This document shows positions 47,701 to 53,700 of a DNA stretch of 64,000 nt, in pieces. The notes below the pieces were generated by a model. It saw only the letters and a program-made list of their open reading frames with translations. It made no database searches and was not told where the DNA came from. Position numbers and translations under genes: made by a program. This DNA is from Haliotis rufescens (taxonomy: Eukaryota), in NCBI RefSeq assembly GCF_023055435.1, contig NW_025963957.1, positions 6,572,001-6,636,000 on the forward strand, read 5' to 3'. Position 1 is the first letter of the stretch; the number at the start of each line of letters is the position of its first letter.

Positions 47701-50700
47701 ATAGCAGAGGGAAGTATCACTGACTTGATGGAGTCATGAAGTATAGCAGAGGGAAGTATCACTGACTTGATGGAGTCATGAAGTATAGCAGAGGGAAGTA
47801 TCACTGACTTGATGGAGACATGAAGTATAGCAGAGGGAAGTATCACTGACTTGATGGAGACATGAAGTATAGCAGAGGGAAGTATCACTGACTTGATGGA
47901 GACATGAAGTATAGCAGAGGGAAGTATCACTGACTTGATGGAGACATGAAGTATAGCAGAGGGAAGTATCACTGACTTGATGGAGTCATGAAGTATAGCA
48001 GAGGGAAGTATCACTGACTTGATGGAGACATGAAGTATAGCAGAGGGAAGTATCACTGACTTGATGGAGACATGAAGTATAGCAGAGGGAAGTATCACTG
48101 ACTTGATGGAGTCATGAAGTATAGCAGAGGGAAGTATCACTGACTTGATGGAGTCATGAAGTATAGCAGAGGGAAGTATCACTGACTTGATGGAGTCATG
48201 AAGTATAGCAGAGGGAAGTATCACTGACTTGATGGAGACATGAAGTATAGCAGAGGGAAGTATCACTGACTTGATGGAGACATGAAGTATAGCAGAGGGA
48301 AGTATCACTGACTTGATGGAGACATGAAGTATAGCAGAGGGAAGTATCACTGACTTGATGGAGTCATGAAGTATAGCAGAGGGAAGTATCACTGACTTGA
48401 TGGAGACATGAAGTATAGCAGAGGGAAGTATCACTGACTTGATGGAGTCATGAAGTATAGCAGAGGGAAGTATCACTGACTTGATGGAGTCATGAAGTAT
48501 AGCAGAGGGAAGTATCACTGACTTGATGGAGACATGAAGTATAGCAGAGGGAAGTATCACTGACTTGATGGAGACATGAAGTATAGCAGAGGGAAGTATC
48601 ACTGACTTGATGGAGACATGAAGTATAGCAGAGGGAAGTATCACTGACTTGATGGAGTCATGAAGTATAGCAGAGGGAAGTATCACTGACTTGATGGAGT
48701 CATGAAGTATAGCAGAGGGAAGTATCACTGACTTGATGGAGACATGAAGTATAGCAGAGGGAAGTATCACTGACTTGATGGAGACATGAAGTATAGCAGA
48801 GGGAAGTATCACTGACTTGATGGAGACATGAAGTATAGCAGAGGGAAGTATCACTGACTTGATGGAGACATGAAGTATAGCAGAGGGAAGTATCACTGAC
48901 TTGATGGAGTCATGAAGTATAGCAGAGGGAAGTATCACTGACTTGATGGAGTCATGAAGTATAGCAGAGGGAAGTATCACTGACTTGATGGAGACATGAA
49001 GTATAGCAGAGGGAAGTATCACTGACTTGATGGAGTCATGAAGTATAGCAGAGGGAAGTATCACTGACTTGATGGAGTCATGAAGTATAGCAGAGGGAAG
49101 TATCACTGACTTGATGGAGACATGAAGTATAGCAGAGGGAAGTATCACTGACTTGATGGAGACATGAAGTATAGCAGAGGGAAGTATCACTGACTTGATG
49201 GAGTCATGAAGTATAGCAGAGGGAAGTATCACTGACTTGATGGAGTCATGAAGTATAGCAGAGGGAAGTATCACTGACTTGATGGAGACATGAAGTATAG
49301 CAGAGGGAAGTATCACTGACTTGATGGAGACATGAAGTATAGCAGAGGGAAGTATCACTGACTTGATGGAGACATGAAGTATAGCAGAGGGAAGTATCAC
49401 TGACTTGATGGAGTCATGAAGTATAGCAGAGGGAAGTATCACTGACTTGATGGAGACATGAAGTATAGCAGAGGGAAGTATCACTGACTTGATGGAGTCA
49501 TGAAGTATAGCAGAGGGAAGTATCACTGACTTGATGGAGTCATGAAGTATAGCAGAGGGAAGTATCACTGACTTGATGGAGACATGAAGTATAGCAGAGG
49601 GAAGTATCACTGACTTGATGGAGACATGAAGTATAGCAGAGGGAAGTATCACTGACTTGATGGAGACATGAAGTATAGCAGAGGGAAGTATCACTGACTT
49701 GATGGAGTCATGAAGTATAGCAGAGGGAAGTATCACTGACTTGATGGAGTCATGAAGTATAGCAGAGGGAAGCATAGCAGAAGGTGGAGAGGGGAGTGTC
49801 AGAATAGTTGCAGGAGTGATGTTTTGATGTCTAGCTTGGGTGAGTGACAGAGCTTTGACAGCAGTCAGTAATGTGTATTAGGAGATAGAGAATGTCAGTG
49901 TAACCACTGCAGAAAGTTGACCTACGTATGCAGATATACTGACATAATTGAATTGTTAGTAATGCTACTTTCTTACGTCAACAAATGTATTCAAATGAAA
50001 AGCACATCGAGGAAAAAAACGTCTCAAGTGAAGGAAAAAACTCTTTCTTCACAAATTGATCACAATGTTAAGACAATAGTAAGCAAAAGTTAAAGTTTTG
50101 GAGGAACAACAGATTTAATGCTAAAATCACTAAGGATTATTGCTTCACAAGTATGCTTTTGTTGTTTTACATCTTCACTTACCTGTAATATTGTGTCTTG
50201 AGCAGCAGGTGTGCGAGGAGTCCGGAGATTGACAGCGTTGGGAGTAGCATTGTAGTCCTGCAGGAGTCCCCTGGAGGCACTGTCCCCCCTGGAGGCTTCC
50301 TCCGCCTGCTGCCGAGCATACTCACTGGCCTGGCCCACCTTCACCACCTGCACACAGAATCAAACCCATCTAGAACACCAAACAGGTGAACGCATTACCC
50401 ACTGGCCCACCTTCACCACCTGCACACAGAATCAAACCCATTTAGGACACCGAACAGGTGTACGTATTACCCACTGGCCCACCTTCACCACCTGCACACA
50501 GAATCAAACCCATCTAGAACACCGAACAGGTGTACGCATTACCCACTGGCCCACCTTCACCACCTGCACACAGAATCAAACCCATCTAGAACACCGAACA
50601 GGTGAACGCATTACCCACTGGCCCACCTTCACCACCTGCACACAGAATCAAACCCATCTAGAACACCGAACAGACGAAACACATTACCCACTGGCCCACC

Positions 50701-53700
50701 TTCACCACCTGCACACAGAATCAAACCCATCTAGAACACCGAACAGGTGAACGCATTACCCACTGGCCCACCTTCACCACCTGCACACAGAATCAAACCC
50801 ATCTGGAAACACTGAACAGCTGAACACATTACCCACTGGCCCACCTTCACCACCTGCACACAGAATCAAACCCATCTAGAACACCGAACAGACGAAACGC
50901 ATTACCCACTGGCCCACCTTCACCACCTGCACACAGAATCAAACCCATCTAGAACACTGAACAGCTGAACACATTACCCACTGGCCCACCTTCACCACCT
51001 GCACACAGAATCAAACCCATCTAGAACACCGAACAGACGAAAGGCATTACCCACTGGCCCACCTTCACCACCTGCACACAGAATCAAACCCATCTAGAAC
51101 ACTGAACAGCTGAACACATTACCCACTGGCCCACCTTCACCACCTGCACACAGAATCAAACCCATCTAGAACACCGAACAGACGAAACGCATTACCCACT
51201 GGCCCACGTTCACCACCTGCACACAGAATCAAACCCATCTAGAACACCGAACAGACGAAACGCATTACCCACTGGCCCACCTTCACCACCTGCACACAGA
51301 ATCAAACCCATCTAGAACACTGAACAGCTGAACACATTACCCACTGGCCCACCTTCACCACCTGCACACAGAATCAAACCCATCTAGAACACCGAACAGA
51401 CGAAACGCATTACCCACTGGCCCACCTTCACCACCTGCACACAGAATCAAACCCATCTAGAACACTGAACAGACGAAACGCATAAACCCACTGGCCCAGC
51501 TTCACACAGAATCAAACCCATCTAGAACACCGAATAGGTGAACGCATTACCCACCGGCCAACCTTCCCCACCTGCACACAGAATCAAACCCATCTAGAAC
51601 AACGAATAGGTGAACGCATTACACACCGGCCCACCTTCACACAGAAGCAAACCCATCTAGAACACCGAACGGTTGAACACATTACACACCGGCCAACCTT
51701 CACCACCTGCACACAGAATCAAACCCATCTAGAACATCGAACAGGTGAACGCATTACCAACTGGCCCACCTTCACCACCTGGAAATCTAGAACACCAGAC
51801 AGATGAACACTTTAACCACTGGCCCATCATCACAACCAGCACACAGAATCAAATAAATTTTACAATAAATTGTATATCTATAAATATTTATCCTATCTCA
51901 CAGTATGCATTTCCACTTCTTTCTCGATCCTTGTGTGGAAACAATCCTAAAACAATGCACCCCAACACATCCCCCATATCCATGGCTACCATTAACAACA
52001 ATAGGCTGTGCCCTGGCTTGTTTCATGCTTAATTGATCACATGACATCCCCAGCTTACCCATTCTCTTTCTAATTGCCTTGTGTGGAGACGTTGTTTGAG
52101 TTTGAACAGAATATGTTTTTGTTTAAGGAAAGAAGGGCAAACGCACACTGTGAGACCGGATAAGTTTTAAAAATTTCAGTTAATATACTACAAAAAAGGT
52201 ATAAGAAAACTATACCGACCTCTTCAAGTTCGGCGTCCGAGATCTGGGGTGCGGGGAGCACCAACTTGCTCCTTTTCTTCACAGGTTCCGTAAAGCTGGA
52301 ACAATATGGCAATTTTATCATCCCAGCTGGTTACATCTAAGCCAAGCCATATCTCCTAGGAGTGAGTGAGTTGGGTTTTACGCCGCTTTTAACAGTATTC
52401 CAGTTATACCACGGTGTGTCAGCTTAATGTGGGAGGAAAGCCCGAAGTGATGCAGGTCTCCGACTTTTAGCACTTCGGTGAAACCCACGAGCACGTGCTG
52501 ACAAAACCTAGAAACATAATCGGGGCGAACCGGGATTCGAACCCACAATCATAGGTTTCTGGCGTGCCCAAGGGACGCAACTCTGCACAGCGAATCGCGG
52601 CACCTTAGACGACTGGGCCACCCCATATCTCCTAGGAGTTATCCCTACACTGATGTAGCATCAGGCCACTGTGTCCTTTATGTCACAAACAAGGGACATC
52701 ACTGATCCTTCTGCCACTGAAGCTGGTGAGCTGTATGATCACACACAAGATGCTGGTCAGAACTGTTTACAAGCTGACAAAGTAGACAGAACAATCGGGG
52801 ATAATGAATACAATCTCCTGTGCTGATATATTTGACATCAAAGACACAAGGGTGGGGTTCTCGATGTACAATCATGAAGGGGCAACTGCACCTGGAAGTA
52901 TTGCTGAAACGACCTGAAACAGTGCACGTTGTCTTACAGCGCAGTAGTCGGGCTGCATCTCCATCACAGTCATCTCCAGTGTGATTAAGTCGCTGTCCTA
53001 CACCAAGCCCTAAACCTCGAAGTGTGGATTAAGTCACTGTCCTATACCAAGCCCTAAACCTCGAAGTGTGGATTAAGTCACTGTCCTATACCATGTCCTA
53101 TAATAAGCCCTAAACCTCGAAGTGTGGATTAAGCCGGTGTCCTATACCATGTCCTATAATAAGCCCTGAACCTCGAAGTGTGGATTAAGCCAGTGTCCTA
53201 TACCATGTCCTATAACAAGAGCTGAACCTCGAAGTGTGGATTAAGCCGGTGTCCTATACCATGTCCTATAATAAGAGCTGAACCTCGAAGTGTGGATTAA
53301 GTCACTGTCCTATATCATGTTCTATAATAAGCCCTAAACATCGAAGTGTGGATTAAGCCGCTGTCCTACACCATGTTGTATATTAAGAGACTGAACCTTG
53401 TCTAAGTGTGGATGAAGCCATTGTCCAATCCCACGTCCCATATTATACCTGTCTATAAACCCTGATATTGACCAAACTCACAACACTTGATAACATGAAT
53501 AACACGGACTTACTTTGTTTGGGCAGCAATGGCTCCAGGAAGGTCGTTCTCCTTCCGCTTCTTCTGTCTCTGCTTGTCCTTCTTTCTATCTCTCTGGAGT
53601 GAGGGAAGGAATAGATACAGTGTTAGCTGACACGTCCTTACAAGTCTTACCTGACTAACACTCGACCCAATGATGAATTCCCGTTTTTATCCATTTTCAC

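Follow-up and report, generated by a model that had tools for sequence, protein, structure and literature searches.

A minisatellite repeating the exon-11 splice acceptor in intron 10 of abalone CDC5L, bypassed in assembled mRNA, probably through exon definition

Tandem repeats in which the 3' end of an intron is copied together with the start of the following exon were described in the amphioxus globin gene BflGb6, where they were named mirages and where splicing was found to be normal by reverse-transcription PCR (PMC3087553). The amphioxus genes reported to carry mirages are the globin genes BflGb6 and BflGb9, Adh3, troponin C and PGBD5 (PMC3087553, PMC3902484); the BflGb6 repeats are unstable in length and undergo concerted evolution from which the copies at the array boundaries are excluded (PMC3087553; PMC3902484). 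Human variable number tandem repeats (VNTRs) that span a splice junction are known from F7 IVS7 (37 bp), the interferon-inducible gene 6-16, CBS IVS13, LMNB2 and PDGF intron 4; two of these genes, 6-16 and CBS, use the two nearest pseudo-sites as well (PMC1557585). In the human CBS allele 844ins68 the last 52 intron and first 16 exon bases are duplicated, and the downstream acceptor is chosen, promoted by G runs between the two sites (PMC7490669, PMC1802585). Intron gain by AGGT segmental duplication was described for ATP2A1 (PMC3265369). The available parts of PMC10078293 gave no acceptor-repeating case, and the abalone minisatellite in PMC6905558 was an ordinary polymorphic intronic one. Here, a 64,000-nucleotide stretch of the Haliotis rufescens genome (contig NW_025963957.1, positions 6,572,001 to 6,636,000; hereafter the window, with positions counted from its first letter) was analysed, in which a junction-spanning array occupies most of intron 10 of the gene CDC5L. 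Assembled mRNA uses only the last of its 19 acceptors, and we read the array as a tolerated mirage that is bypassed by exon definition, with a probability of about 0.82.

The CDC5L identity and exon numbering given in the original prediction were borne out (19 coding exons, exon-10 donor at 52219, exon 11 at 50347-50183). Both Myb_Cef matches in the whole genome (2/2 rows) fell inside the window, and an exon query returned 81 relatives, of which the named ones were CDC5-like and the closest were from Haliotis. The 797-amino-acid (aa) spliced product was collinear with Haliotis CDC5L and differed from it by 3 residues. The features of the locus are as follows, with a slash marking the exon/intron border in donor motifs.

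41692..59255, minus strand: coding span of CDC5L, 797 aa in 19 coding exons (from Myb_Cef matches, CDC5-like homologues and spliced translation against Haliotis CDC5L)
52220..52295, minus strand: exon 10, with donor GAG/GTCGGT at 52219, phase 0; RNA contigs go from here to exon 11
50348..52219, minus strand: intron 10, 1872 nt, of which ~430 nt are unique and the remainder is repeat
50348..50349, minus strand: true acceptor AG (RNA contigs X15, X16, X17, X18, X19)
50183..50347, minus strand: exon 11, 165 nt, phase 0-0; its closing donor CAG/GTAAGT has the top score in the gene
50330..51790, minus strand: mirage minisatellite, with 20 units (58-73 nt) and 18 intact decoy acceptors, present in DNA runs X1 and X11
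51791..51853 (about), minus strand: degenerate copy at the 5' edge, AG changed to TG, 15 differences from the consensus
51758..51780, minus strand: decoy acceptor furthest upstream; its exon-like part starts at 51778 and its acceptor score tops the array, yet the contigs seen do not use it
51598..51660, minus strand: unit without acceptor owing to a 9-nt deletion (unit splitting and alignment)
51461..51525, minus strand: second unit without acceptor, identical 9-nt deletion (unit splitting and alignment)
50399..50421, minus strand: decoy acceptor closest to the true one, followed by the potential 21-nt micro-exon (50419-50399), whose donor TGG/GTAATG is weak; joint unseen in contigs

Tandem Repeats Finder (TRF) placed the array at 50330-51781 on the minus strand, with period 72, 20.3 copies and 90% matches. 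Each unit joins the last ~54 nt of intron 10 to the 18 nt with which exon 11 begins, true acceptor included. About 20 copies of the acceptor in units of 72 nt each had been predicted: the array is real and has 20 units, of which 18 rather than 20 retain an intact decoy AG (the 9-nt deletion removed it from two units, and in the degenerate copy it is TG), and the length of 72 nt applies to 10 units, with 7 of 73 nt and one each of 58, 63 and 65 nt. The potential in-frame 21-nt micro-exon exists on paper, as a GT lies 21 nt downstream in 18/18 intact decoys, and the separation put at 51 nt is 51 or 52 nt depending on the unit. Read-through from the decoys reaches a stop after 16-40 codons in every one of the 18; this is the TGA that had been named in the 72-nt units and a TAG in most 73-nt units. 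Divergence from the consensus was 5-20 columns in units 0-5 and 1-4 columns in units 6-20: copies at the 5' end of the array have decayed, and those at the 3' end are uniform. A search of the abalone's own genome with the unit, by a program that skips very common words, returned the array locus only (10/10 rows).

The array thus described belongs with the mirages of amphioxus and is akin to the human F7 and CBS repeats. As in BflGb6, the 3' end of an intron is repeated with the beginning of the exon that follows, and as in the amphioxus cases many but not all copies retain the splice signal (in CDC5L 18 intact, 2 deleted, 1 mutated), with the inner copies homogenised and the boundary copy diverged. 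The unit of 72/73 bp compares with units of 10-72 bp reported for Adh3, and the ~20 copies with 3-6 in BflGb6. Unlike the amphioxus cases, this one has a mollusc as host, sits in a core spliceosome gene and was traced across three organisms; no report of mirages in molluscs was found in the literature searched, which was covered in part. The human VNTRs, as far as described in the available text, likewise have the real splice site in the end unit followed by identical pseudo-sites, the exon-adjoining copy being the one that wins, but they repeat a donor where the CDC5L array repeats an acceptor. CBS 844ins68 is closest in make-up, its unit of 52 + 16 bases resembling the ~54 + 18 of CDC5L with three G runs, although it amounts to a single extra copy in a polymorphic allele against 18 decoys.

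As in the ATP2A1 case, the tandem copies in CDC5L carry AG/GT, and both the proposal of mirages as a route to new introns (PMC3087553) and the creation of an intron by AGGT duplication of an exon segment (PMC3265369) would allow an intron gain in progress. In the ATP2A1 model, however, exon sequence is duplicated and yields a new intron, whereas the CDC5L copies lie inside an old intron and a new exon is unseen. The unit is three-quarters intronic, gene structure and protein are unchanged with exon 11 intact, and a stable new exon would require the micro-exon, which no contig contains. Since intron 10 already exists, the array is not an AGGT intron gain, and we consider that reading, largely refuted as matters stand, extremely improbable.

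Part of the region was present in 20 of 24 sequencing runs. The genomic DNA was checked in 2 of 14 DNA runs (X1, organism A; X11, organism B). In X1, which is possibly not independent of the assembly, unit words had 14.0 and 11.8 times the flank depth, against 15.5 and 13.9 predicted by the window; this is a rough measure, contig depth not being equal to copy number. The depth in X1 thus approximates the copy number of the window, although contig depth cannot type alleles. In X11, with 20 substitutions in ~570 flanking bases, the array is present and is entered from unique intron at the same point, the degenerate edge copy, as in organism A. RNA-type runs of organism D contain a 102-nt contig of the unit. 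No array contig was found in the RNA of organism C (X17, X19), a result that is uninformative. An assembly artefact, the possibility raised with the prediction, has practically no chance of explaining the repeat: its existence in the DNA of two organisms and the RNA of a third, the rough agreement of the X1 ratios with the window and the ordered variants borne by the units all speak against it, and nothing in its favour was found, so that as to existence it was ruled out. Presence in organisms A, B and D indicates that the array predates the split of these lineages.

Splicing was read from assembled contigs, in which rare variants are dropped and targets of nonsense-mediated decay (NMD) and nascent intermediates are under-represented, so that the dominant product is what they give. 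Six RNA-type runs covering the region were used (3 organisms, 3 studies), none of them formally recorded as RNA, with three small-RNA libraries and X24 left out. One unbroken contig of 1957-3346 nt spanned the tested exon in all six. In the five runs with printed letters (X15, X16, X17, X18, X19) exon 10 was joined to the true acceptor. A single long contig ran from exon 10 via 50347 into exon 12 in both of the runs examined on the exon-11 side (X15, X17); on the exon-10 side, X16, X18 and X19 carried true-exon letters beyond the point at which the decoys diverge, and in X20 a single 3119-nt contig covered exon 10 likewise. The summed depth on exon 10 equalled that of the single contig in 4/4 exon-10-side runs. 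Neither a micro-exon joint nor an exon 10-to-decoy or recursive product was found among the contigs of the 6 runs, and no contig skipping exon 11 after exon 10 was present in the exon-10-side runs with printed letters, a skip that would preserve the reading frame because exon 11 has 165 nt and phase 0-0. The array itself appears in RNA as contigs of 102-103 nt (one unspliced unit + 30), whose depth in organism D is 9-12 times that of unique intron 10, the excess expected from collapsed copies of the unspliced intron.

As had been predicted, then, the spliceosome bypasses the decoys: the last acceptor is the one used in all RNA contigs seen, and in the assembled contigs, nascent and NMD-blocked RNA apart, the exon-10 donor joins 50347 only. 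This regular splicing at the authentic site is a further likeness to the amphioxus mirages, read here from contigs in which minor forms are invisible. With the same reservation, none of the four functions proposed for the array (recursive splicing, micro-exon inclusion, NMD-coupled autoregulation and intron gain) found support.

For a tissue-specific (e.g. neuronal) micro-exon adding 7 residues to CDC5L, the frame is suitable, all 18 decoys have the GT at +22, and the same GTAATG functions as donor at exon 7. Against this, in runs of unspecified tissue, the joint of 50399 to 50347 is absent in 2/2 RNA-type runs on the exon-11 side, and the 3 runs printed on the exon-10 side have exon 10 followed by the true exon only. 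The decoy donor scores near the bottom of the range, and the 51-52 nt between potential micro-exons fall below a minimum intron of ~60 nt (PMC3265369). The homologues listed (31/81 with the junction motif, best 30) have no repeated motif at the exon 10/11 junction. We regard a micro-exon as highly improbable.

Recursive splicing, in which exon 10 would be joined to a decoy and the regenerated donor then to the true acceptor, would give a final mRNA indistinguishable from the one observed; every decoy is an AG/GT and its regenerated donor scores 6.3. Established recursive splice sites lie in very long introns, and their usual regenerated donor is GTAAG or GTGAG. Intron 10 is only 1.9 kb long, the regenerated GTGGTG departs from that pattern, and a contig of the exon 10-decoy intermediate was not found, which together make recursion very unlikely.

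The strength of the splice sites offers an explanation for the choice of the last copy. The true acceptor and the standard decoy both scored 4.9, and the most upstream decoy scored 11.3. The exon-11 closing donor scored 11.0, the best in the gene, against 2.9 for the decoy donor and 2.5-11.0 for real donors. A branch-point candidate at -13 is common to all copies; another, at -40, lies upstream of the true site and of just 4/18 decoys, with a TAG between it and the AG used. No special RNA fold was detected (z +0.9 to +1.3) in 3/3 folded windows, two over decoys and one over the true acceptor. Because the first and strongest decoy goes unused, intron-side sequence does not decide the acceptor. 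The last one is likely chosen because it is the sole copy with a strong donor one exon-length (165 nt) downstream, the decoys having a weak donor 21 nt on. We infer that neither position nor intron-side strength selects the winner and that pairing across the 165-nt exon would. The 19 near-identical 3' splice sites thus form a natural test of acceptor choice, and the loss of the first, best-scoring one to the last favours exon definition over intron-side strength.

The array may have been seeded by one tandem duplication across the intron/exon border and then expanded and homogenised by slippage or unequal exchange, with exon definition selecting the last acceptor. The G runs (56 in the array, three per unit) perhaps add silencing of the decoys, as in human CBS; action of heterogeneous nuclear ribonucleoproteins or of the G runs themselves at the CDC5L array would follow by analogy. 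Use of the nearest pseudo-sites in 6-16 and CBS makes a leak at the nearest CDC5L decoys possible, and any leaked product would contain a premature stop and would be cleared by NMD. On this view the array would be a passenger, one of many repeats adjoining splice sites in the abalone genome.

That last point was approached through other arrays. In the introns of CDC5L, 5 of 9 arrays have a splice site no more than 25 nt away, where 1.2 would be expected. In addition to the mirage these include the following.

47692-49772: 42-mer x 49.5, ending 13 nt before an acceptor of CDC5L
43793-44032: 34-mer x 7.1, ending 11 nt before an acceptor of CDC5L
41792-42056: 34-mer x 7.8, ending 4 nt before an acceptor of CDC5L
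43087-43148: 9-mer array, starting 9 nt after a donor of CDC5L

This excess prompted a survey of control genes, for which 9 chaperonin genes with ~110 introns were modelled de novo, some boundaries being corrected by hand; one of 18 arrays lay outside its gene and was excluded, leaving 17. Within 25 nt of a splice site there were 6/17 arrays, where 2.5 would be expected (P ~0.02; P 0.02 also in a rank test). At a threshold of 15 nt the count was 4/17, a borderline result (P 0.052), and at 65 nt no enrichment was found among the control arrays (8/17, P 0.19). One array in the ~110 control introns straddled a junction: it is a 41-bp x 32 array over a donor of a CCT chaperonin gene, and 17 exact copies of that donor come after the true one (G000:C24:29572135-29573459, minus strand). 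Given this chaperonin mirage and the 6/17 arrays near splice sites, nothing singles out CDC5L. The survey suggests that mirages and minisatellites adjoining splice sites are common in abalone, extending the lancelet phenomenon to molluscs; if genome-wide, the enrichment would suggest a mutational process linked to the edges of exons.

The same survey bears on NMD-coupled regulation, in which regulated decoy use would yield stop-containing CDC5L transcripts as a possibly autoregulatory poison switch. Splicing factors are often autoregulated through poison exons according to the available parts of that literature, every decoy has the potential to reach a stop, the signal block of the units is uniform, and the array was retained in three organisms. 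Stops are nevertheless no signature, since any intronic read-through gives them, a decoy contig is absent in 6/6 RNA-type runs, and among 10 papers listed for CDC5L and poison exons, CDC5L is mentioned once, in one of them. The presence of the same kind of repeat in a chaperonin gene means that a role specific to splicing factors is not needed. Such regulation seems very unlikely to us.

Several points tell against the reading of a tolerated array. The splice-site matrix was built from a small sample, the 18 introns of CDC5L itself. The hexamer GTAATG of the decoy donors also serves CDC5L as the real donor of exon 7, and the score of 6.3 for the regenerated donor GAG/GTGGTG is within the real range. 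The array has persisted in organisms A, B and D, whose introns are ~3-8% diverged, and all three differences listed for the organism D unit go to the window consensus. In units 6-20, 3 distinct changes fall in a 52-nt block that comprises acceptor, pseudo-exon and donor, and 12 in the 20-nt spacer, 8/12 of the latter being outside CpG (P 0.0008); the block was picked after inspection and the change events are not independent. In units 2-20 the counts are 12 in the block and 16 in the spacer. Finally, low-level, NMD-degraded or nascent decoy use could lie behind data that consist of contigs.

The uniform block could have arisen by conversion from the true copy, in which 44/52 nt of the block are present and constrained as acceptor and codons, or by selection on the decoys. 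Together with the persistence in three organisms and the workable regenerated donor, it keeps a functional reading alive, in which the ladder would be a working splicing element that diverts nascent CDC5L RNA via recursive or stop-containing routes, its copy number tuning the level of a core spliceosome protein. This we hold to be unlikely, and prefer the tolerated mirage bypassed by exon definition; if true, this would be the first functional mirage, and if the decoys were used in a regulated way the repeat would be a dial on a core splicing factor.

Two further control sets were discarded: myosin exons, most rows of which came from one paralogue cluster, and DEAD-box loci, many rows of which resembled repeated single-exon elements. 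A tandem cluster of >12 myosin-head genes in mixed orientation lies at G000:C113:13.9-14.3 Mb. Inside the window, a DEAD/RecQ-like helicase match at 7619-7900 belongs to a type found repeatedly, in single-exon form, on several contigs and is possibly part of a mobile element. On the plus strand at ~23190-25510, long open frames (159 and 320 aa) with a partly duplicated segment give the impression of a mobile-element protein. A long 16-bp G-rich minisatellite with strong strand skew occupies 30466-32616, with ~87 copies at 31216-32616. Upstream of CDC5L, at ~61200-64000 on the minus strand, lies a small multi-exon gene; read by eye, it has what we take to be a signal-peptide-like start and EF-hand-like motifs.

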